Shown here: positions 8,810 through 45,802 of the stretch, in pieces | How positions within the stretch are numbered: position 1 is the stretch's first letter | Layout of the letters: every line of letters begins with the position of its first letter | Assembly: GCA_964016885.1 (NCBI GenBank) | Contig: OZ024746.1 | Span: 25,978,001 to 26,042,000 of the forward strand | Direction: 5' to 3' | From: Eledone cirrhosa | Taxonomy: Eukaryota | Length of the DNA: 64,000 nucleotides | The notes under the pieces: generated by a model | What the model was told of the DNA's origin: nothing | The model's input: only the letters and a program-made list of their open reading frames with translations | Databases searched by the model: none | Program-made: the position numbers and the translations under genes

Positions 8810-9445
8810 CATCATTGTTTTATATCTGTTTTCTATGCTGGCATGGGTTGGATGAGTTGTTGTGGTCTTACTCTAAACAGGACGGATAGTTATCTCGCGC
8901 ATACATTCTTTATTTTGGCTTGGTTTCAAAATTTGGATACTCTTCCTAATGCTAACCACTTTACAGATTGGACTGTGTGTATATTATCATAACACAAACA
9001 CTCCCACTTTACAAATCGGACTGGGTGTATTTTATCAAAACACAAACACTCCCACTTTGCAGACTGGACTGGGTGTATTTTATCATAACACAAGCACTCT
9101 CACTTTACAGAGTGTATTGAGTGTATTTTATCATGGTATCAGTACTACCACTTTACATAGCATAAAAGGTGTGTTTTATTGTGGTATCAGCACTACCACT
9201 TTAAAGTGTGCTGAGTACATTTTATCATGGCACCACCACTACTGCTTTAGAGTGAATTTGGTGTATTTTATTGTGGTACCAACACTCTTACTGTACAGAG
9301 TATACTGGGTGTATTTTATTATGGTATAAGCACTCCCACGTTACAGAGTGTATTGGGTATATTTTATTGTGGTACCAGCACTTTTACTTTACAGAGTGTA
9401 CTGAGTGTATTTTATCAAGAGACTAGCATTACCACTCTACCGTGT
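8810..9445 (-). repeat. RTE-type tail followed by ~11 tandem ~43-bp units
   Basis: ccactttacagagtgtactgggtgtattttat units; same unit as 2625-2880 in opposite orientation. Confidence 0.8.
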
Positions 9446-10501
9446 GTACTAGTTGAAATATAATAATCAGATTAAATGCCCAAGTAATTGATCAGGCTCA
9501 GTACACTCAGCTGTTGAAATCTTGCCTCTGTCAACTTTTGGAAGTTAATAAAATACCAGTCCAAGGGTGCTGGATTGGATACACTTTGCAACATCTGTTC
9601 CAGGTTTCTGCATTCCAAGAAGTTCGAATCCCACCTACTGTCACTGGCAAAGCTGTGACACATTTGCCAAGAATTACAACCTGCAGACAGTTATACTCCT
9701 TCCCCAGCAGGCTGGATTCTCATGGGAAATAATTGGCCTAAAAACAGGATCACGAACATTCTCAAATACCAATTGAAATATGTTCATGACGTTTTGTACT
9801 CTGCTGTAAGCGGAAATAACGATTAGATAGAATTTGATAGTCTATTTAAATGGTCACCCATTTAAATTTCTTTCGCATTTTAACTTTATCTAATTTTTCT
9901 GCTATTTCAACCCTTTTACTACTATATTTCTAAAGAAATACACTAATTTAGTTATATTCTTAAATCCCTCTAAATATTGATTCTTTTCAAAATTATTTGG
10001 AAATCATAGGCACTGTCTATCATTAGAAATATGATAATAAAAATGTTAAACATGTTTTCCTAATCTAACAACCAGAATAAGTAATTCTCTTCTCTGAAAT
10101 GGATTTATCATGTATTAAACTTTGATTTGGTTCACACACATACACAAAGACATGGAATGCACACAGACAGGCACATCCATACACAAACATACACCTGAAA
10201 ACAAACCCAATAGACATAAACATATAGTTACACATCTGAGTAGCAACAAACTTAGTGCAGCCAGTAAATTTCATATTTTGCAGCTATTTAGAGCAGATGA
10301 TGCCATTATGAAGGGAAACCATATATGTATGTTCATAAAATACGGATATGGTAGTGCTACAAATAAATGCATCCAATGGTGACAATGATGATGATGATGA
10401 TGACGACAATACAGTCAGAGACCTTGAATAAACATTTGAAATAGTTTGACATTTACAGCTTTTCCTTGTTCTTTGATAAAATGAAACTGAAATATGTCCT
10501 T

Positions 10502-11875
10502 GTAGATTAGCCACACTTCTCCATAACATAGTAGTAGTGGTGGTGGTAGTAGTAGTGGTGGTAGTAGTAGTGGTGGTGGTTGTAGTGGTGGGGGTGGTAG
10601 TAGTAGAAGTAGTAATGATTGTGGTGGTGGTAATAGTAGATTAGCCACACTTCTCCACGACATAGTAACTATATAGTTTGGTGGTGGTGGTTGTTGTGAT
10701 GGTAGTAGTAATGGTGGGTGTGATTATTATGGTGTGGGTGATTGCGGTGGTGGTATTGATAATAGTAGATTAACCACACTTCTCCATGAGAGTAACTACT
10801 TAGTAGTAGTAGTAGTGGTTGTGGTGGTAGTAGTGGCTGTGGTGGTAGTAGTAGTAGTGGCAGTAATAGTAGTGTTGGTAGTAGTAGTAGTGGTGGCAAT
10901 GGTTGTAGTAGTAGATTAGCGACACTTCTCCATGACATAGTAACTACTTAGTAGTAGAAGTGGTGGAATTGGTGGCAGTGTAATAGTAGTAGTACTGGCA
11001 GTAGAAATGATGTTAATAGTAGAAATGATGTTAATAGTAGAAATGATGTTAATAGTAGAAATGGTGTTAATAGTAGAAATGATGTTAATAGTAGAAATGA
11101 TGTTAATAGTAGAAATGATGTTAATAGTAGAAATGATGTTAATAGTAGAAATGATGTTAATAGTAGAAATGGTGTTAATAGTAGAAATGGTGTTAATAGT
11201 AGAAATGATGTTAATAGTAGAAATGATGTTAATAGTAGAAATGATGTTAATAGTAGAAATGATGTTAATAGTAGAAATGGTGTTAATAGTAGAAATGGTG
11301 TTAATAGTAGAAATGATGTTAATAGTAGAAATGATGTTAATAGTAGAAATGGTGTTAATAGTAGAAATGGTGTTAATAGTAGAAATGATGTTAATAGTAG
11401 AAATGGTGTTAATAGTAGAAATGGTGTTAATAGTAGAAATGATGTTAATAGTAGAAATGATGTTAATAGTAGAAATGATGTTAATAGTAGAAATGGTGTT
11501 AATAGTAGAAATGATGTTAATAGTAGAAATGATGTTAATAGTAGAAATGGTGTTAATAGTAGAAATGATGTTAATAGTAGAAATGATGTTAATAGTAGAA
11601 ATGGTGTTAATAGTAGAAATGATGTTAATAGTAGAAATGATGTTAATAGTAGAAATGATGTTAATAGTAGAAATGGTGTTAATAGTAGAAATGATGTTAA
11701 TAGTAGAAATGGTGTTAATAGTAGAAATGATGTTAATAGTAGAAATGGTGTTAATAGTAGAAATGATGTTAATAGTAGAAATGGTGTTAATAGTAGAAAT
11801 GGTGTTAATAGTAGTAATGGTGTTAGTAGTTGTGGTGGTAGTAGATTAGCCATATCTTCCATGACACAATAACAG
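10502..11875. repeat. Compound satellite: five ~33-bp anchors separated by GTA/GTG-rich spacers
   Basis: gtagattagccacacttctccatgacatagtaa-like anchors at 10502, 10636, 10765, 10911, 11841. Confidence 0.85.
11000..11820. repeat. 18-bp minisatellite (gtagaaatgRtgttaata), ~45 copies
   Basis: Two variants differing by one A/G; accounts for ORFs 10948-11862 and 11007-11849. Confidence 0.97.
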
Positions 11876-14954: not shown

Positions 14955-16470
14955 AAACGAAAGATAGTTACTTTAGATCATGTCTATTTTATTATACGTA
15001 TTTCGAAGATGCAAGGCTTATGTATAACATAATCCAAAACATGTTTTTGTCAGACAAAATGCATAGGAGATGCAGAATTTTTTTGATTTACTGGCAGTCA
15101 AACAAGCTGGACAGATTGGTGACAACCGAGCATATGATTAGAAAAAAAAACCCAACACAGAAGATGTTACATAAGTGGGAGAAAAATACAGTTGGACTTA
15201 ACGTTTTTGAAATTATTTAAAATATGATGTAATTAGTTTGGTAAAAAAAAAAAAGTAAATATAGACTATTAGTCAGTTTATATGTTACTTATATTAGCTA
15301 CTATACCAAAAAATATATATATTTTATACCAAAGAAAAAATATTCGAGGATGCTAAAGTAATATTGTAATTATATGATAAAGAAAAAAAAATTAGGATTA
15401 CAAAATTCAAAAGTAAATTATCTATGCTTATGTATAATTTGAATTGGTATTATATGAGTGGAAAAATATTTAACAATTGGTATGACTTTTTTTTTTTATA
15501 TAACTGACTTCAAAAGAAGAGATGCAATTAATTTATCCTTTCAACAATTATATTTAAGTAGGTAATATACGAATAGAGGAAAATATTAACTATTGGTGTA
15601 ACTATTATTATAAGAAAAGTGTATGTATTATAGCCTAGTTTATAAATTTATATTAAATTTAATTTACTTATATACTAACTAAAGATAAGGTAGATGAAAA
15701 AGTTATAATGAAAAAATATATTAGTTTACTTATTTTGTCTATTCGTCTTTATTTTCTATCTAAACATAACAAAATTGAATAAAAATCATATACAAAGAAA
15801 TATTACTTATTTAATTTTTTTTAATTAAATTTAACTAAAAACGCTATGAAACGTTTTTGAAAACTTGTGAAGACAAGAACTAAAGATTTCAGAGCGTTTA
15901 TGGATAGTTAATTACCTATTATAAATGATATGTAGAATTTCTGTGGTACAGAAATTAAATCCTTTAGATACGGAAGCATTTTTATAAGGCAAAGCATTAG
16001 AAAGTTTCTGCCAAGAAAGGGAATATTCAATATTATTATTTTTAAGGGACCAAATCAATTCAGAGAGGGACGTACTAAATCTTTTATCTTCTTTTAAACG
16101 AGTGATGATTGTACCATCTTTCTTTAAATTTTGAAGAGGTGGCACCAATATAATTATAAAACTTATCTTTTGTTTTAACTATGCATTTATAAACTAAATT
16201 ACAATCAAGACAGTTATTATTTAGTGGGAAAAAATTCTTTTTTTTTTACAATTATGTTACTATTCAATGATGCCACTCTGTGTCTATAAGTCATCAGGTT
16301 TTTGTCGTCTATGTTGTTGGTGTAATCGTTGCTAATTGAGATGTTGTTTATTCTATTAGTGATTCCAAGATTACCATTATGAGTTAACTCCCTATGATTA
16401 GTTCTGAGATATCCATTGTTAATTTTAGCTATATTTTGGGCACTAATTTTAATAGTCGAGTAGGAAAGTT
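14950..16470 (-). mobile_element. Degenerate Penelope-like element (GIY-YIG remnant plus 3' UTR)
   Basis: Minus-strand PLNNNCLDCNLVYKCIV..YIGATSS..STSLSELIWSLK..FCTTE, matching the 26.6-27.7 kb ORF; hammerhead-like motif at the 3' end. Confidence 0.8.
14985..15061 (-). ncRNA. Degenerate type-I hammerhead ribozyme motif
   Basis: attttgt-CTGACAA-(weak stem II)-GAAA-tacgta-TA-ataaaat; core G8 is A. Confidence 0.6.
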
Positions 16471-20647: not shown

Positions 20648-22148
<1,501 letters not shown>

Positions 22149-22545: not shown

Positions 22546-23560
22546 GTAGGAGGTGAGTTTTATTGTAGTACAATAAAGCAATGCAGATATCGGATAAGTA
22601 GCACTCTTCAGTTTGTAGGTCTGGAGTATAAATAATATATAAGATAAAAAGATGGTTAAAAGAGTTCCATGTATTTTATTATGCACATTTCAAAAACAAA
22701 TATCATCATGCGATGACAATTGCGTTTTTGTCAGATAAAATAGGGAGACATGATATGAAGGTTAAAAAAACACTTGTGAATAGTGCAGTTTTAAATCAAC
22801 ATATGAAAAGTAGTTTTAGATTGATGTGTGATATTTGGAAAAAAAGAATTGAGGGCGTGGGGTGGTGGAAAGGATGAAAAAGAGGAGGAGATGAGAATAA
22901 AAAGTGGAGGGGTAGGAGTATAATAAGGAAGGATGAGATAGGAGAGATGGGTGATAGAGAGAGAGAGATAGCTTTTATAACTGAGAAAAATATATTGTTT
23001 TACATAGAGAGATTAAAAAACCGTTGGAAGATAATATATAAATTAAAAGAATTTGAAAATTAACAAAGAGAAAAATTTTAGAATAATGTTAAATTAAGGT
23101 TTGTCTATTGAAGGGTTTAATAATATGTGCGATGAAAAGAAATTGTTAATATGTATTATTAAAAAATATAAAAATATAACAATAGTAATGTAATTAAGGA
23201 TATATTGTGAAAAGAAGTAGAAGAGTGGATGAATAATTGTAATATGTATAAGTTAGATGAGCATGAAAGGGAGAAAAAAATAATGAATTGAGGATGAATA
23301 ATCTAACATAAAAAAAAATTTATGTTTACGAAGGATTTTTCAAGGTGATATAAAGTATTTAAAAGGGTAAGGATATATTGTGGGGAGTAATAATGAGAAT
23401 TGAGAAGTATCTAGGAAGAAAAGGTACAGATTAGAGGTTAGAAATTAAAAGAAAAAGAAAAAAAGAAAAGAAAAAAGGAAAAAAAGAAAGAAAGGGAAGT
23501 GATAAAGAATGAGTAACTAGTATTATATAATGTATAATAAATAACATTGAAATAAGGTAG
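22546..23560 (-). mobile_element. Probable PLE 3' UTR/terminal repeat
   Basis: Shares its terminus with 2091-2230; hammerhead-like motif; abuts (TA)n; right boundary set by the CR1 insertion and uncertain. Confidence 0.55.
22672..22742 (-). ncRNA. Degenerate type-I hammerhead ribozyme motif
   Basis: tattttat-CTGACAA-aaacgcaattgtcatc..gatgatatttgttttt-GAAA-tgtgca-TA-ataaaata. Confidence 0.65.
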
Positions 23561-23561
23561 C

Positions 23562-24915
23562 ACGCAACATGGCTTCCGCCCAGGAAGAAGCTGCCTTACA
23601 CAGCTGCTACATCACTACGACTGGGTACTGAGACAACTACTAGACAGCTCACATGTGGACGTGATATATCTTGACTTTGCGAAGGCCTTTGACAAGGTCG
23701 ACCACGGAATGATATGTCACAAACTACACGGACTCGGCATAACTGGAAAAGTAGGTGAGTGGCTGCATGGCTTCCTAAGGGACAGAGGCCAGGCAGTCGC
23801 AGCAAATGGGGCCCTCTTGAGGGAAACACCAATAACAAGTGGGGTGCCCCAGGGGACAGTCCTGGGACCACTACTGTTTTTGGTGGCTCTCTCAGACATG
23901 CCCTCTGTAGTGCATACAACAACATCCCTCACTAGCTATGCTGATGACACTAAGGTAGCACAGGCAATCAAAAACTCGGCTGACGCTGCCCTTTTACAGC
24001 AGGATCTGGATGCCATATACAAATGGGCGGAAGAAATCAACATGTAGTTTAATGCTGGCAAATTCCAAGCCCTACAATTCAAACCTGCAAACACAAATAT
24101 AGTGGAACACAACTACACAGGACCAGGAGGGACTGATATCCCCGTGTCAAAATCGATACGAGACCTGGGCATAGACATGAGCGATGATGCATCTTTTTCT
24201 TCACACATCATGAAAGTGGCGACAATGTGCAGACAACTCGCTGGCTGGATCTTGAGGACTTTCCGGACAAGAGATCGAGACACCATGTTGACACTATGGA
24301 GGACATTTGTCCTAAGCTGCCTGGACTACTGCTCCCAGTTGTGGTCACCCCATAGTGTCAAACTAACCACGGAGCTTGAGGCAATCCAGCGAAGCTACAC
24401 CAAGAGGATTGCCAAGATGAGGGAGACAAGCTACTGGGAGAGGTTAAAGGAACTGAACCTCTACTCCTTGGAACGAAGACGGGAGAGATACGCAGTGATC
24501 TACATGTGGAAAATCCTGGAGGGACTAGCACCAAACTTTGGCATTGGGAGCTGGACCAACCATTGAACAGGACGTCACTGTGTGGTGCCAAAGGTCCCGT
24601 CTTCCACATCTAGAATAAGGAGCAGGTATTGCAATAGCCTGGGATTCCAGGGCCCTCAACTCTTCAACAGGCTGCCGAGGGATCTGAGAGACTTGCATGA
24701 CGTGGAGATGGATGTCTTCAAGAAACATCTCGACACCTTGTTATCCAGGATCCCGGATGAGCCCACAGCAAGACACGAGGGAAACCTAAGGGCAGCAGCA
24801 ACAAACTCCCTCTGACACCAGTGGCCAACCTATACAGGCTGGAGATAAAATGTGTAGCAACAAGGGCGGTGCCCCAGCATGGCCTCAGCCAGATGGCTGA
24901 AACAGGTAAAAGAGT
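23562..24915 (+). mobile_element. CR1/L2-group LINE, 5'-truncated RT pseudogene
   Basis: QHGFRPGRSC, YLDFAKAFDKVDH, SGVPQGTVLGP, YADDTK, LDYCSQLWSP, LERRR; in-frame stops at ~24045 and ~24564. Confidence 0.93.
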
Positions 24916-25022
24916 ATATATATATATATACATATACATATACATATATATACATATATACATATACACATATATACATATATAATATTAATAAATGGAA
25001 ACTATATTTATAAAACCATATT

Positions 25023-25087
25023 TATTTCATTATACATATTTCAGGGATACCACATTAAATTATGGTATGCCTTCATCAGACAAAATA
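25023..25087 (-). ncRNA. Type-I minimal hammerhead ribozyme, intact core
   Basis: tattttgt-CTGATGA-aggcatacca..tggtatccct-GAAA-tatgta-TA-atgaaata. Confidence 0.8.
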
Positions 25088-26577
25088 CAATATATAACAG
25101 TTTTACAAATAGCTTTGACGTACCCTTTTAAAATGCAACCATTACTTTTGGAGGCTGTCTGGATAGTGATTTGTTTATATTATTTTAATAAGTCATAGTG
25201 TTAAGCACAATTAGAAAAAGAAGGAGAGAAAGAAAAAAAAAAGACAAAAAAGACGGAGAGAGAAAGAAACCTGGAGAAATATCGGAGAGAAATGTATGGA
25301 GAAAAGAAAGAGATAAATAAAGATAGGAGGAAATAAGAAAAACAAAGGAAAGCAACAGAGAGATATCAAGTCATCATACAGATAGAAAAACTCAAGAGAG
25401 AGAAATACTATATAGAGAGAGGGGGAGACAATGAAAACTTTACGTCATGTCATATTAAGTTGAGTTAACAATTTATATGAAATGAATAATAAAAATATAA
25501 ATATCAATATTCATGAATGGGACATAGATATATAATATGAGAAATTAAACATTGTTCAATAATGACTATATGTTTAGTTTAAAAACTTGAGATCAATATA
25601 CCAAAATCAGAGTTAAATCGTTCAAAATGTACCCTTGCTATAGAGATCAGTATCTTATGCAAAGACATACAAATATATATGTATATATATATATATATAT
25701 ACACATACGCACGTCCTGAAAATAGAAATTATGTTTACTCAAGCCAACAATATAGCCATACAAAACGTAAATGATTTCTCTTAATCACTGCTATACATTC
25801 CCTGTGTTATAAAAAGTTCACAGTATATATACATAAATATATACGATTAATATTCATGTCGTCATATATACGATTACTATTCATGTATTTAATATTATGC
25901 ATATCTGCAACATACCTCTCACCCACATAGATATATATACATACATATATACACATACATATGTATAAATAAATATTTGCGTGCGTCACCCGCATCGCTC
26001 ATGTATATATACAGACACAAAAAACCTATAACACTTTATATGCATGTTAATACACACATATGCATTTGTATAGAGATAATCAAATATCAATATATTACTA
26101 AAGGATTATAACTTGTAAATATAACTATAACAATATAAATTTAAAATACCAAAGGAATATATATCAGTATAGTTAAAAGAAATCTAGAAATATCAAAGCA
26201 TTAAATATCTTTAAAACACTATAGAGTATCTTAAGTTAAAATAATATGTTTTATATATTAAGTATAGAAATTTATCCTACGTATATCTCAATCAAGATAT
26301 TGAAAGGGTAGACTTATGAAAGTTATGAGAAGCTATCAGAATCAAAACAAATAAATAAAAATAATTTAAAAGATTTAAAAAACCCAATGATTCTACAGAT
26401 AACCTTATATTTAGTATAGAAATTTATCTTACGTATATTTTATTTAATACATTGGAAGTATAGACATTTTAGAGTAGTTTATTATATCCATGTTTATATT
26501 TAGGAAGAAAGTTTAAAAAGAATCTAATGATTTATCGACAGGTTTCATATATTAACTAAATTACTTAATTAATTATA

Positions 26578-27735
26578 CTACATTTTAAATTTATATTTAT
26601 ATTTAAACGTTGAGTTCAATCTATGTCTGCAGCAACTGAATAAATTGTTCCTTAAATTAAGGGAATTTTTGGACTTTAATATAAAGAATATTTCTTCAAT
26701 ACAAAGATCACAATTTTCTGTAGAGGAATTAAAAGGAGTAGCTTATGAAATAATATTCCAATTCATCGAGTATTTAATATTATCTCGCTTTAGGTCCCAT
26801 AGTAGGCTAGATAGCGAAGTTGAAGATTTTTTGTTTGGATCTGTGAAAGAATTCTTATGATTATTGAAGCGAAATTTAAATTCTGTAGAGGTGGAACCAA
26901 CATATTTAAATGAATTTAAATTAGTTTTAACATTACAATTGTACACTACATTTTTAGCTAAGCAGTTGTTATTTAACGGACAGTTAGATTTATTTCTACA
27001 GTTACAGTTATTTAATTGAATATTGTTTGGGTTATTATTGGTATTTTGGTTAGGTTTTAAATTCCTATTATTAATTCTATTAATATTTTGTGCTAAATTT
27101 TTGGTGGACGAATAAGTTAATTTTATAGTGTGTCTATTAAAAATTGAGTAATATTTATGTGTTCTAGGGAAGCGTTTGTCAAGAGCTTTAAAGAATAGTT
27201 TAGCAATAGGGGTTTTAATATTTAGTGAGAAAGGGGGAGCAAACCATAATATATTTCTAGTTCTCTTTCGGCTTTTGGAATTATTGTAATGTTTTCTATT
27301 ATAGTTGTTAAAGTTGTTACCGTAATTGAAATTGTTATTATTTTGGTTAGTTTGCTTATTATTATTATTATCGATGTATTTAATTTTATTTCTATATCCA
27401 GCTCTACCTAACGCTTCGTTGTAATACTGCGCTTTTTCATCAAATATATTTTTATTAGATGAAATTCTTGAAATTCGTTCTTGAACAGAGTTCACTATAG
27501 TATTTTTAACAGATCTGGGGTGATTAGAGTTAAAGTTGACATAATTCAAGTTCTCATTTAGTTTGTGAAATGGATAATGAAGACATGTGTTGAGATTTAG
27601 TGTTACATCAAGAAAATTGACTATTCTATGGTTATTCTCTATTTCTATTTTTAGATTAAGGTAATTAAAAAATTGTATAATTTGTTTTCTTTTTCTATTT
27701 AGTTCACAGCTATTATTTTCTATAAGTAAAAGCAT
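26578..27735 (-). pseudogene. PLE ORF C-terminal half (RT thumb, CNCR..CPL..C linker, GIY-YIG endonuclease)
   Basis: VNFLDVTL, SNHP, CNCRNKSNCPLNNNCL, NVVY..YVGST..FKFRFNNH; same frame continues past the stop at 26743 as ATPFNSSTENCDLCIEE..LNLRN..CCRH to a TAG at 26578. Confidence 0.9.
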
Positions 27736-27849
27736 GTCATCCTCCGGCCAACTGAACTCACTCGATATGCAAATTGGGCTGCTCAGCCGTTAATTTTTCA
27801 TAAGGAAAGTATATACTTTCGGACGTTCAACCATCTGGCAGAAAGGTAT

Positions 27850-27892
27850 GCGGTGCTGACGATAGCTAGCAGGCTTGAAACTAGTACATCGT
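27850..27892 (+). ncRNA. Type-I minimal hammerhead ribozyme, intact core
   Basis: gcggtg-CTGACGA-tagct agca ggctt-GAAA-ctag-TA-catcgt; palindromic actagt stem III; GUA cleavage triplet. Confidence 0.75.
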
Positions 27893-27945
27893 TCCTGTGT
27901 CAGTGTTGAACAAAAAGGTGACGTGGTTGCCTAAACACTGTACGG

Positions 27946-27993
27946 CGTAAATCAGGCTGTTCGTTTGTTTACAAACGAACAGCCTGATTTACG
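27946..27993. repeat. Perfect palindrome with 23-bp arms
   Basis: cgtaaatcaggctgttcgtttgt-tt-acaaacgaacagcctgatttacg. Confidence 0.95.
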
Positions 27994-28071
27994 TTTGTTT
28001 ACAAACGAACAAAGCGAACATTATAATAAATGTTCGGTAAACTGATACGTGCATATATATATGTGTGCCTG

Positions 28072-28106
<35 letters not shown>

Positions 28107-28283
28107 GATACTGTGCGTCTGTATACATATATGTATGTACGTGTACATACATACTTACATTTAAGTAAGTGCCGTACTAGGAGTGAGAAATGAAATTTCG
28201 TTTCATTCTATTCCATTTATATATATATACATATATATATATACACACATATATATATAAATGAAGTAATTCCGTCGGAAAAG

Positions 28284-28342
28284 TCCATTCTGATGATTGA
28301 AAGCAACATTTTTTTGCTTTTCAGAAACCACTGGTAAATGGA
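28284..28342 (+). ncRNA. Type-I minimal hammerhead ribozyme, intact core
   Basis: tccatt-CTGATGA-ttgaaagcaa..ttgcttttca-GAAA-ccactgg-TA-aatgga. Confidence 0.8.
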
Positions 28343-28368
28343 ATAATTGCCTTATGTTGTTTATTACA

Positions 28369-28404
<36 letters not shown>

Positions 28405-28848
28405 CTTTTCTTTTCTTTTAATATGACTTTAATCTTTAAATGTAAACTGCCATGCTTAAATATTATAATGGATGTCAACCCACTGTGCATCAATATATAC
28501 ATATGTTTCTGTATGTCTCTTGTGTTGAAAAGGAGGTCAAGTATGTAAAAAAATCATTGAAAAAATTGCTCCGAAGACTCCAAACCTCGGTTTGGAAGAA
28601 ACAATTGTAAGCCAATAAATGATTTGAACAGAACTTTGATTCATGTAATTTCTATATAACTGCTCTGTAGAACAACTGATGTTATTACATTGAGCTATTT
28701 GTCTTACTGGTAATAAGGTAGTAATAAATTACTGTCTTTCACTGTTTAGGGTTTAAAATATATATAACTATAAAAGGTTTTACTGTATACATAACCATAA
28801 ATAGTATCCTTAATACTATATATATACATGTACATATATATATATATG

Positions 28849-29207
28849 CAGAGGTTATATTTAATTTGTTGGGATACAACAAGCTTAAAAATATTTTTAT
28901 AACTGATATAAAGCACTCAACAAGTTATTGGAGTAAATATACAATATATTAACAAATATATTGTAATGGAAACTATATTTATAAAACCATATTTATTTTA
29001 TTATACATATTTCAAGGGCTTATCCAGGAAGCTCCAACCGTTAAGGTTGTCTTTTTTCAGGGTATGTCAATATTTATTTATAAAACTAATCTGTATTGTA
29101 TTTTATCTGATGAAAGTGCACCATAATTTGCCTTGGTGACCCTTGAAATATGTATAATAAAATAAATATGGTTTTATAAATATAGTTTCCATTTGTTAAT
29201 ATATTGT
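28849..29207. mobile_element. PLE terminal-repeat insertion with inversion, in (TA)n
   Basis: 28966-29018 is inverted relative to 29140-29192; homologous to 24985-25200 and 41898-42480. Confidence 0.75.
29099..29164 (+). ncRNA. Type-I minimal hammerhead ribozyme, intact core
   Basis: tattttat-CTGATGA-aagtgcacc..ggtgaccctt-GAAA-tatgta-TA-ataaaata. Confidence 0.8.
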
Positions 29208-30208
29208 ATATATATATGTGTGTGTGTGTGTGAATACACACACATATATATACACATATGTGTGTGTATATAGTTAATAAATGAAACAAAACAAAACACA
29301 GGAAGCAAAATTACAGATTAATATTAGGTTCATATGTGTGTGTACACACAGAGAGTAGTACTGATTAAAAACTGAAAGATGAGTTCAATATACTTAGTGA
29401 AATACAAGCTGTATATGTATATACATGTGTGTGTACTCATGTATACACACACTTATTTTATATTGCACTAGCTGTAGTATAATATAATACTACAGTTTAC
29501 TATAGTTATAGTTGTTACAGTGTAGGGTGTAGTATAATATAATGCTACAGTTATAGTTATTATAGTGTAGGATGTAGCATATGAGACCATAACTATAGTT
29601 GTTATAGCATAGGATGTAGTGGTAGCATGATATAAAAGTTGTTATAGCATAGGATGTAGTGGTAGCATGATATAAAACCACAGCTATAGTCATGTAGGAT
29701 GTAGTTGGTGGTATTCCTGTAACAATACAGAATCTATTATTGTAATAAATAATTATGGTATAGCACTGATAGTATCATCAAGGGGTTCATAACAGTAACA
29801 ACTGATTAATAGCTTTGTCTTTTCACAATTGTAAGGTCTTGAGTTTGATTCCCAACAACACATTATGCTCTTGAGCAAGATACTTTATTTCATGCTGCTC
29901 CAGTGAAGTCAACTGGAAAAAATAAGACGTGCCTGTAATTTAAAGGGCCATACTAGTCATCACTGTATCACACTGAATCTCTCTGAGAACTACAGTAAAG
30001 GTATAATGCTCAACCACATACACTGTAATACAAGATAATCCTGTAATTCAAAGTACCAGACTTGTTACACACTGTGTCATGCTGAATCTCACTGAAAATT
30101 ATGTGGAATGCTCAGTCATTTGCACAATAATACAAGATGGACTGTACTTGTAATTGGGAGGGCCAGCTATGTCACACACTGTCGCACTGAGTTTCTCTGA
30201 GATCAACA

Positions 30209-41706: not shown

Positions 41707-42026
41707 TATATATATATATATATATATATAGATTCCTGTTGTTGGTGGGGGGGGGGACCACAGTTACAAAAGGTACTCAATACATTCGTAGAGTATAGGC
41801 ATCTTTATTATTCCAGTTGATTTCATATGAATGAAAGTTCTAGTCCTGTAGAAGTCATTTCTATATATATATAGAGATATAGATATATATATATAAGCAA
41901 AGGGATATTTAATTTGTTGGTAATTCAACAAATATATTTATAACAGATTCGAAGCACTCGACAGATTTTCTGGTGTATAATATCAATGATATTAATAAAT
42001 GGAAATTATATTTATAAAACCATATT

Positions 42027-42087
42027 TATTCTATTATATATATTTCAAGGGTACTAACATTTTGGTACGCTCTCATCAAATAAAATA
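42027..42087 (-). ncRNA. Hammerhead motif with one core mutation (TTGATGA)
   Basis: tattttat-TTGATGA-gagcgtacc..agtaccctt-GAAA-tatata-TA-atagaata. Confidence 0.65.
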
Positions 42088-42215
42088 TAAAGTTTGTTTT
42101 ATAAATATTGACATATCTAGGAATGAGACCTTAATGGTTGAAGTTTCACCTGGATAGTACTTGAACCGTTTAGGTCTCATTCCTGGATATGTCAATATTT
42201 ATAAAACAAACTTTG

Positions 42216-42276
42216 TATTTTATCTGATGAGAGCGTACCAAAGTTTTGTTACCCTTGGAATATATATAATAGAATA
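42216..42276 (+). ncRNA. Hammerhead motif with one core mutation (GGAA)
   Basis: tattttat-CTGATGA-gagcgtacc..ttaccctt-GGAA-tatata-TA-atagaata. Confidence 0.65.
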
Positions 42277-42295
42277 AATATGGTTTCCATTTATG

Positions 42296-45004: not shown

Positions 45005-45802
45005 TTTTGATATCAACCCACCAGAAACCCACACTGGTTCTATGATACAAAGCTGTTTGATTATATTCATCTAAAAATCTTCCATCACACTTTTATGTAA
45101 CAACCTTTGTTATGTTCCAAACATCAGCTTAATAATGGGAAAGTTATTTAACTAAATCCCTCAAAATTCTTAATTATTTTCAAAATTATTTGAAAATCAT
45201 AGGCAGTGTCTTCCATTATAAATATGGTAACAGGGTTAAAGTGTTTATATTTATCTAAAAAGCTTCCATCACAATTTTATCTAAGAACTATTGTTAAATT
45301 ATGTTCCAAACGCCAGCTTAATAATGAAAAAGTTAATTATATTACTAAATCCCTCCCAATTCTTGATTATTTTCAAAATTATTTGACAACTACAAGCAGT
45401 GTATTTCATTAGAAATATGGTAAGAAAAAGGATAAAAAAGATTTATCTAAAAAGCTTCCATCATAATTTTATCTAAGAACTATTGTTAAATTATGTTCCA
45501 AACATCAATCTAATAATGAGAAAGTTAGTTATACATTATTACTAAATCCCTCCCAACATTTTATTATTTTCAAAATCATAGGCAGTGTATTTCATTAGAA
45601 ATATGGTAACAAAAAGGTTAAAGTGTTTATATTTATCTAAAAATGTTTTATGTTAGAACCTTTGTTAATTATGTTCCAAACATCAGCTTAATGAGAAAGT
45701 TAGTTATATTAGTAAATCCTTCCCAATTCTTGATTATTTTCAAAATTATTTGAAAACCATAGACTGACTCTCATTAGAAATGTGGTAATGAAAGGGTTTA
45801 AA
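45005..45802. repeat. MITE family B with ~185-bp segment in about 4 tandem copies
   Basis: Repeated atctaaaaagcttccatca..ttccaaacatcagc..cattagaaatatggtaa..gggttaa. Confidence 0.75.

Follow-up and report, generated by a model that had tools for sequence, protein, structure and literature searches.

A nest of five hammerhead motifs in the Eledone cirrhosa genome, probably built from Hydra-clade Penelope-like elements and a retrozyme-like tandem unit

Why should one short segment of the Eledone cirrhosa genome carry several hammerhead ribozyme motifs of dissimilar sequence? We addressed this question in 64,000 nucleotides of contig OZ024746.1 (positions 25,978,001 to 26,042,000 of assembly GCA_964016885.1), hereafter the window, which is AT-rich and contains many TA microsatellites. 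A preliminary description of the window had reported four hammerheads from three unrelated families within 4.2 kb. Our analysis indicates that this cluster contains five predicted motifs, four of which are situated in the terminal repeats of Penelope-like elements (PLEs) and one in a short non-coding tandem element. The explanation that we favor, with a probability of roughly 0.85, is that the 4.2 kb is a pile-up, in a TA microsatellite, of five young copies (four PLEs of the Hydra clade, termed A1, A2, C and D, and one unit of a 480-bp non-coding tandem family, termed B), each with a type-I hammerhead that likely cleaves as a dimer through a palindromic helix III. The window copies themselves are truncated and likely inert.

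Five motifs and the elements that carry them

We located the four described motifs at exactly the positions reported, with the CUGANGA, GAAA and UH cores intact, complementary stem I arms and a self-complementary helix III (predicted cut sites are given in Table 1). A strict type-I descriptor returned three of them, at 25087-25023(-), 28284-28342 and 29099-29164, and had no other match in the window; three strict matches were reached in none of 40 whole-window and none of 1000 region dinucleotide shuffles. The strict descriptor omits 27850-27892 because helix II there opens with a U-U mismatch, and a relaxed descriptor that tolerates an unpaired base where helix II begins yielded precisely the four motifs. 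When one core mismatch was allowed there were five additional matches, at 28571 (CCGAAGA), 42224, 42079, 22734 and 15053. The count of four was thus incomplete, as a fifth motif with the variant core CCGAAGA is present at 28566-28614(+). The core positions C3 U4 G5 A6 N7 G8 A9, G12 A13 A14, A15.1-U16.1 and H17 are all intact in A1, A2, B and C. A scan run without any constraint on helix III gave 249 matches in 644,903 locus bases, from partly overlapping loci that had been picked for hammerhead motifs, versus a single match in 163,532 block-shuffled bases.

The preliminary description also held that the open reading frames (ORFs) of the window do not reveal these elements, which overlooked a 348-aa stop-to-stop ORF at 26743-27789(-) that appears to encode a PLE reverse transcriptase (RT)/endonuclease. 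This frame has 116 scored copies at 91-99% identity (from 90,315 candidates) with open frames of up to 816 aa. Since these copies run on into 26600-24978, the motif at 25023-25087 belongs to the 3' pseudo-long terminal repeat (pLTR) of A1, and for this reason we rejected B as a candidate inverted pLTR of A1. The window copy of A1 is cut at the DD of the RT catalytic motif, and its ORF remnant is 91% identical to an intact copy (L123) over aa 355-737. In three of 10 extended copies (L123, L125 and L130) a hammerhead flanks a 743-746-aa or broken ORF on both sides, and in A1 copies with this pLTR-ORF-pLTR arrangement the motifs are 3951-4416 bp apart. The intact A1 ORF contains RWR, DKT, LYRDD, YVG, CxCX5C, CxxC and CxH motifs and has 236 homologues at E≤1e-20. 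An asparagine-rich stretch occupies 27250-27400(-) of the A1 ORF, between the thumb and the endonuclease; comparable inserts have been reported in rotifer Penelopes (PMC3846280).

The remaining PLE families are related to A1 to differing degrees. The pLTR of A2 is 77-81% identical to that of A1, and upstream of A2 pLTRs in two loci (L159, L160) there are ORF C-termini only, at 71-74% identity to A1. Full pLTR-ORF-pLTR copies were found elsewhere for C (L156, 2692 bp) and for D (L157, 4223 bp), and their ORF pieces are 32-40% (C) and 33-52% (D) identical to A1. The earlier statement that three unrelated families are present is accurate for the ribozyme sequences, which are indeed unrelated, but not for the elements, as A, C and D appear to be paralogous Hydra lineages. 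By sequence, A1, C and D are endonuclease-bearing (EN+) PLEs with a single ORF composed of an RT plus a GIY-YIG endonuclease at the C terminus, and they display the PLE architecture of pLTRs in partial tandem, an inverted 5'-truncated copy and an optional tail. All three possess the CxCX5C linker and the CxxC and CxH motifs around a conserved E and N, together with RWR and DKT in A1 and D, and RWK in C. CCHH appears by eye to be absent from these three ORFs, judged against what we take to be its reference layout.

The features that define the Hydra clade are given in section 11 of PMC8557442 (Craig et al., 2021), and those shared with the present elements (for example through Hydra-1_Obim) include the single ORF, the RWK-like and DKT motifs, CxCX5C, CxxC with CxH, insertion into (TA)n and, close to the 3' end, a type-I hammerhead, for which D has a variant core. 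By eye, the N-terminus and helix III of family C closely resemble those of the octopus element Hydra-1_Obim. There are also differences from that account. A1 and D are about 4 kb as compared with the <3 kb typical of Hydra, several families here reach very high copy number whereas PMC8557442 reports a small number of families, the A-type helix II is long (3 bp, a Y-C mismatch, then 6 bp) unlike that of the Hydra elements described there, and the CCGA core of D occurs in none of the motifs in its File S2.

Table 1. Features of the hammerhead nest and its left border (window coordinates).
Feature	Position	Strand	Details
Putative LINE-type (long interspersed nuclear element, non-LTR) remnant, 3' part	23556..24906	+	RVT_1 E=3e-20 on 23556-24044; in-frame stops; ends at TA tract of the nest
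TA/TACA microsatellite, left target tract	24907..24988		Read from the sequence
A1, Hydra-clade PLE copy	24978..27747	-	5'-truncated inside RT catalytic motif; short 3' end ~24978 (+53 from cut)
Hammerhead A1, type I	25023..25087	-	Helix III AUAUGUAU; predicted cut after 25031; in A1 3' pLTR
A1 ORF remnant	26570..27741	-	RT C-terminal half, thumb, CxCX5C linker, GIY-YIG-type endonuclease, CxxC, CxH; one in-frame stop near 26743
Head-to-head junction A1(-)-B(+)	27742..27747		11-bp deletion between short direct repeats, then 2-4 bp microhomology
B, one unit of ~480-bp non-coding tandem (retrozyme-like) family	27744..28220	+	Internal TA tract 28045-28105; long 3' end ~28218
Hammerhead B	27850..27892	+	Helix II U-U plus 4 bp; helix III ACUAGU; predicted cut after 27886; relaxed descriptor
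C, 120-bp two-armed insertion of second Hydra family	28256..28375	+	Left arm 28256-28287(-), long-end tip; right arm 28286-28375(+), short end
Hammerhead C	28284..28342	+	Helix III ACCACUGGU; predicted cut after 28336; one helix II substitution relative to family
D, one-armed 5'-truncated pLTR of third Hydra family	28402..28819	+	Long 3' end ~28819
Hammerhead D	28566..28614	+	Core CCGAAGA (U4C); helix III ACAAUUGU; predicted cut after 28609; one stem I substitution in window copy
A2, two-armed insertion of A1 sister family	28845..29211	+	Left arm 28845-29019(-), long end; right arm 29021-29211(+), short end
Hammerhead A2	29099..29164	+	Helix III AUAUGUAU; predicted cut after 29156; right arm of A2

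Genome-wide (3.0 Gb in 1796 contigs), exact patterns matched 77,185 A-type, 14,351 B and 813 D motifs, with no match to the reversed-pattern controls. These three patterns alone amount to at least 92,000 motifs, which is at least 31 per Mb or about two per 64 kb. Many more bystander hammerhead families were observed in loci L001-L130; helix III is palindromic in most of them, and some have an insert of 14 nt in helix III. The genome total is well above 92,000. For comparison, 126,247 hammerheads have been counted in axolotl and >6,000 in a coral (PMC7229834). At least two hammerhead families occur in 25 of 111 three-kb loci and three in 6 of 111. The cluster itself is thus ordinary for this genome, where small nests are common, and the local excess of motifs in the window is a consequence of nesting. 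The suggestion that several PLE and non-autonomous ribozyme families had repeatedly hit TA microsatellites was borne out, as each motif traces to a high-copy family ending at (TA)n; the window copies are 96-99% identical to dispersed members of their own families. The preliminary description named neither the Hydra clade nor the two-armed insertions.

Covariation, helix III and a variant core

We analyzed stem covariation among 13 A-type subfamilies obtained by clustering 39 distinct helix II sequences. Overall 96.7% of cells were paired and 11 of the 21 pairs change on both sides, a result matched by none of 500 shuffles, while slid controls pair at only 33-55%. Changes on both sides involve all nine helix II pairs and two of four helix III pairs, and changes in helix I are one-sided only. 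The innermost helix III pair is UA in six cases, UG in five and CG in two; as the central bases of helix III are adjacent, they can pair only between two molecules. When no constraint was imposed, 11 of 20 distinct helix III inserts were self-complementary versus 1.5 expected, and the four helix III strings formed no hairpin but did form self-duplexes, at -2.2 to -8.2 kcal/mol.

These properties are consistent with the dimer-cleavage model of PMC4209133 (Cervera and De la Peña, 2014), which reports that minimal single motifs did not cleave and that dimers cleaved weakly. Likenesses to the PLE hammerheads in that paper include the pLTR position, a palindromic helix III, a large helix II, an extra base after A9 in B and D, and opposite-strand pairs 100-700 bp apart. 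In contrast to them, G10.1-C11.1 is not retained (A-U is commonest in A-type motifs), and helix III here is 6-9 nt, above their minimal form.

In the motif at 28284, only four of the stem I pairs derive from the family, and the other two are supplied through the 5' stem I by the inversion junction. The motif in D does not have the canonical U4. Among family D motifs the core is CCGA in 25 of 26 and TCGA in one, and it is CCGA in every one of the first 100 of 813 listed matches. A slightly shorter D pattern in the CTGA form had 62 matches, 26 of which are CTGAAGA. An older D subfamily (75-80% identical) has CCGA in 17 of 21 motifs from 20 stretches, a count that leaves out the L169 pair, which has one motif of each kind. 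In three D insertions the two arms differ, one having CCGA and the second CTGA, which would fit CpG decay. Judged from these counts, two subfamilies of D have U4C as their family state. This change is known from a viroid hammerhead, where it is reported to lower in vitro activity considerably and the viroid nevertheless remains infectious (cited in Perreault et al., 2011; PMC3088659). D has the same core change as the viroid, the difference being that here it characterizes two PLE subfamilies of the genome and hundreds of copies. The available text of PMC4209133 includes U3-A8 among its variants and does not mention U4C.

Two fixed ends, paired arms and the tandem unit B

Downstream of the cut, every family has 3' ends at two fixed sites, which are AT-rich motifs followed by (TA)n. 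Measured from the cut, the short and long ends are at +53 and +145 in A1, +55 and about +146 in A2, +39 and +107 in C, +49 and +210 in D, and about +243 and +304 in B, which at times also ends in its internal TA tract. The pairing of these ends was assessed in two sets of insertions; choice of a site independently for each arm would make half of the pairs short with long. The first set, from loci selected by identity, comprises 89 distinct head-to-head junctions, with 17 A1 rows left out whose arms run past the loci. A short end was paired with a long end in 21 of 22 A2 insertions (one unclassified), 16 of 17 C insertions (L084 is long-long), 9 of 10 D insertions (one unclassified) and eight B loci against one long-long (L048), with 10 B rows unclassified. 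The second set consists of opposite-strand (-/+) pairs taken from the pattern listings in listing order, irrespective of their ends. In this set the short-with-long arrangement was observed in 26 of 27 A-type pairs (one of them predicted first and then checked; the remaining one is disrupted) and in 10 of 15 B pairs, where one is irregular, two end in internal TA and two are unclassified. Regarding D, 13 of 15 pairs were covered and 12 of these 13 join a short end with read-through past the short site, the other being unclassified. Overall, 48 of 48 clearly resolved pairs in the second set are short with long and none is short-short or long-long.

The short end of B is on the left in all 10 clear cases (L196-L210, in the first 50 Mb of contig C1), a bias that A-type pairs do not exhibit (10 versus 15). 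Both C and A2 repeatedly show long arms that measure just 29-82 nt. In the window insertion of C, the arms at 28256-28287 and 28286-28375 have no common sequence, from which we infer that two separate priming events were needed. All insertions with a hammerhead were copied through the cut site. A tail has been described as frequent or optional at one end (PMC8557442, PMC3846280), and our literature search, which covered open-access text, found no published strict short-with-long rule.

A precedent for two ends is found with the Poseidon element PAc of Anolis (Frangieh et al., 2024; PMC11167929), for which two RT start sites bounding the tail were observed in vitro and both strands were cut. 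Shared with PAc are the two fixed 3' ends past the hammerhead that define a tail, the AT-rich target and the extension of both strands. Unlike those of PAc, the tails of the present elements measure 61-161 nt and precede the start of the ORF, and the near-obligate pairing of short with long contrasts with the report of no strand difference in start site for PAc.

Family B differs from the other families in lacking a coding region. Its units are 482-502 bp from cut to cut with a GC content of 0.35, one type-I hammerhead each and a longest ATG frame of 66-137 aa that runs across the TA tract. Where B is not truncated, the sequence upstream of it is a preceding B unit, and at 30 loci no Hydra ORF continued from B in the way of a pLTR. 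At the nucleotide level, library searches matched B to none of the A, C and D exemplars. B is strongly self-paired (z -10), partly via the TA tract. In the first 100 of the 14,351 sites listed, 25 of 28 neighbours on the same strand are separated by 456-556 bp, and neighbours on opposite strands are tail-out (-/+) in 15 cases versus one +/-. A near-perfect 48-bp palindrome at 27946-27993 in the window copy is created by a short insertion that is not in the other B copies printed. In its non-coding tandem units, single type-I hammerhead per unit and GC content below 50%, B has by its sequence the characteristics of a non-LTR retrozyme. Animal non-LTR retrozymes (Cervera and De la Peña, 2020, PMC7229834; Li et al., 2026 preprint) are likewise non-coding, tandem and self-paired, with one type-I hammerhead per unit, and B at 35% GC shares these features. 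The B unit is slightly over the 150-450 bp range of retrozymes (PMC7229834). It also inserts into (TA)n, ends at two fixed sites and has tail-out arms of the PLE type, none of which is reported for retrozymes in the available text of these two papers.

Hybrid insertions may be informative regarding which enzymes move B. In the window, a short A1 arm is head to head with the long end of B, and in L153 the long end of B faces the short end of C. At two of 43 distinct single-direction B sites, namely L276 (4800-8410) and L277 (930-2350), B is joined to an ORF from one further Hydra family, with TGCGCA as its helix III insert; the outer ends of both were predicted beforehand and both came out as one short and one long. 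No new hybrid was observed in 20 further B stretches, one of them a repeat. That four of four hybrids are short with long has a probability of about 1/16 under fusion by later deletion, so this serves as a lead only. As B heads are often joined to unrelated DNA, insertion with target deletion remains a fair explanation of the hybrids. Together, the hybrids and the end signature of B likely point to Hydra enzymes as the mobiliser of this retrozyme, which would agree with the view of PLEs as strong candidate retrozyme mobilisers (PMC7229834), a view supported by phylogeny (Li et al., 2026 preprint). In L198 both flanks of the B array start with the same sequence, inverted, which by eye encodes a Hydra-like RT motif. 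Among the pieces listed for 27400-28040 from four contig sets of one study, none spans the A1-B junction, which has no bearing on the assembly.

The remaining observations concern the window outside of the nest. An older two-armed A-type insertion is present at 41866-42290, with hammerheads at 42079(-) and 42224(+) that each have one core mutation, and two decayed A-type hammerheads with an altered G8 are present at 22734(-) and 15053(-). An older remnant of a Hydra ORF C-terminus (16519-15849(-), 35-58% identical to A1) may go with the motif at 15053. Four further repeats, at 11000-11830, 8956-9450, 45061-45788 and 20649-22148, are tandem arrays of 18/36 bp, 48 bp and 192 bp and an AT-type microsatellite of 1.5 kb.

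Proposed origin, rival explanations and meaning

We propose that a Hydra RT/endonuclease complex would cut both strands within (TA)n, that the free 3' ends would prime reverse transcription at AT-rich RNA sites, one proximal and one distal, and that the two truncated cDNAs would then be joined head to head by microhomology. As the template passes through the ribozyme site, the RNA would be uncut or re-ligated (circular or tandem). Each insertion leaves TA on both sides, so that later copies could land alongside, and B would likely be moved in trans by Hydra enzymes. The nest may then have formed from a TA tract at the 3' end of the putative LINE remnant, with D, A2, C and the A1-B unit having landed in this tract or in TA beside earlier insertions. 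A tentative extension of this scheme, to which we give somewhat less than even odds, is that every two-armed Hydra insertion is one two-primer event by an asymmetric RT/endonuclease dimer, with one cDNA from the proximal and one from the distal RNA site and with templates that may be different RNAs. B would ride along, so that the A1(short)/B(long) hybrid of the window and those in L153, L276 and L277 would be direct products of Hydra enzymes copying retrozyme RNA, and the Hydra element D would thrive with a U4C core.

Several observations count against the pile-up of ribozyme-bearing Hydra elements. All of its support is at the sequence level. The Rfam check gave no hammerhead at the gathering score, nor any among 95 matches at E≤10. 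Pfam had no significant match to the window ORF or to intact A1 copies; among 50 A1 homologues GIY-YIG matched only four and RVT_1 only two, and searches of the PDB by sequence and by profile gave no significant match for the intact A1 ORF. Assignment of A1, A2, C and D to the Hydra clade was made from motifs and by-eye comparison. The A-type covariation overstates independence, because the collecting pattern required alternating R/Y in helix III and the 13 sequences are related. The two long-long exceptions, C in L084 and B in L048, depart from the pairing rule. Finally, the Poseidon ribozyme was dispensable for insertion in vitro, where start sites did not differ between strands (PMC11167929).

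One alternative is that the hammerhead fold acts mainly as an RNA dimerisation or protein-binding module, with cleavage being weak or dispensable for transposition. D reached at least 813 copies with U4C, and CCGA predominates in its older subfamily (17/21), even though U4C is reported to lower activity considerably in vitro (PMC3088659); insertions with the motif all copy through the cut site, ribozyme mutants had no effect on in vitro insertion (PMC11167929), and Naiads spread without canonical motifs (PMC8557442). We nonetheless regard this as unlikely, given that many diverged families conserve the remaining core bases as well as the UH site and each of the three helices, that the U4C viroid is still infectious (PMC3088659) and that a CUGA core is present in all Hydra motifs of File S2 (PMC8557442). 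It is improbable that B is instead a satellite that owes its spread to amplification at the DNA level or to a LINE rather than to Hydra enzymes. Such a satellite would account for the tandem spacing (25/28 same-strand neighbours at 456-556 bp) and for the lack of a nucleotide match to A, C and D in library searches, and unequal crossover has been proposed for local retrozyme amplification (bioRxiv 10.64898/2026.07.22.740005). However, B arrays are dispersed, short and tail-out (15 versus 1), B ends at two fixed sites before (TA)n and pairs short with long, and its helix II (U-U plus 4 bp) is as in published Hydra motifs.

The arms also can be explained in another manner, namely by fold-back self-priming, either of one cDNA or of an antisense template, after which one end would be trimmed by the endonuclease. 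The window arms of C share nothing, so that neither can be a copy of the other, which contradicts this for non-overlapping arms, and the recurrent long arms of 29-82 nt in C and A2 also speak against it. We consider it quite improbable, despite self-priming having been proposed for head-to-head Penelope structures in rotifers (PMC3846280) and endonuclease resolution for the tail (PMC8557442), and despite the many arms here that do overlap in sequence. Four of the five motifs are on the same strand within 1.3 kb, as might be expected if the host had domesticated the cluster as a ribozyme array for the processing of one of its transcripts. This is highly improbable for copies 96-99% identical to dispersed family members, with helix-breaking substitutions in window C and D, helix III palindromes that are family-specific, and nests of three in 6 of 111 loci. 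That the motifs are chance matches in AT-rich DNA, to which the lack of an Rfam hammerhead match would lend itself, is refuted by the shuffles, by tens of thousands of exact copies with zero controls and by the covariation, and has a negligible probability.

The pile-up of Hydra-clade and retrozyme-like copies is thus the explanation that we retain. Earlier work had already described hammerheads in the terminal repeats of PLEs, the Hydra clade and retrozymes. The novelty here, at the level of sequence, consists of the families themselves, a U4C core that is fixed, the nearly strict pairing of ends and a retrozyme with a Hydra-type insertion signature. B appears to carry this signature at the nucleotide level, which names two candidate priming sites. 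The near-strict pairing of short with long, together with arms that sometimes have no common sequence, would constrain the mechanism of PLE integration, and the E. cirrhosa genome is a rich source of natural hammerhead variants, a fixed U4C core included.

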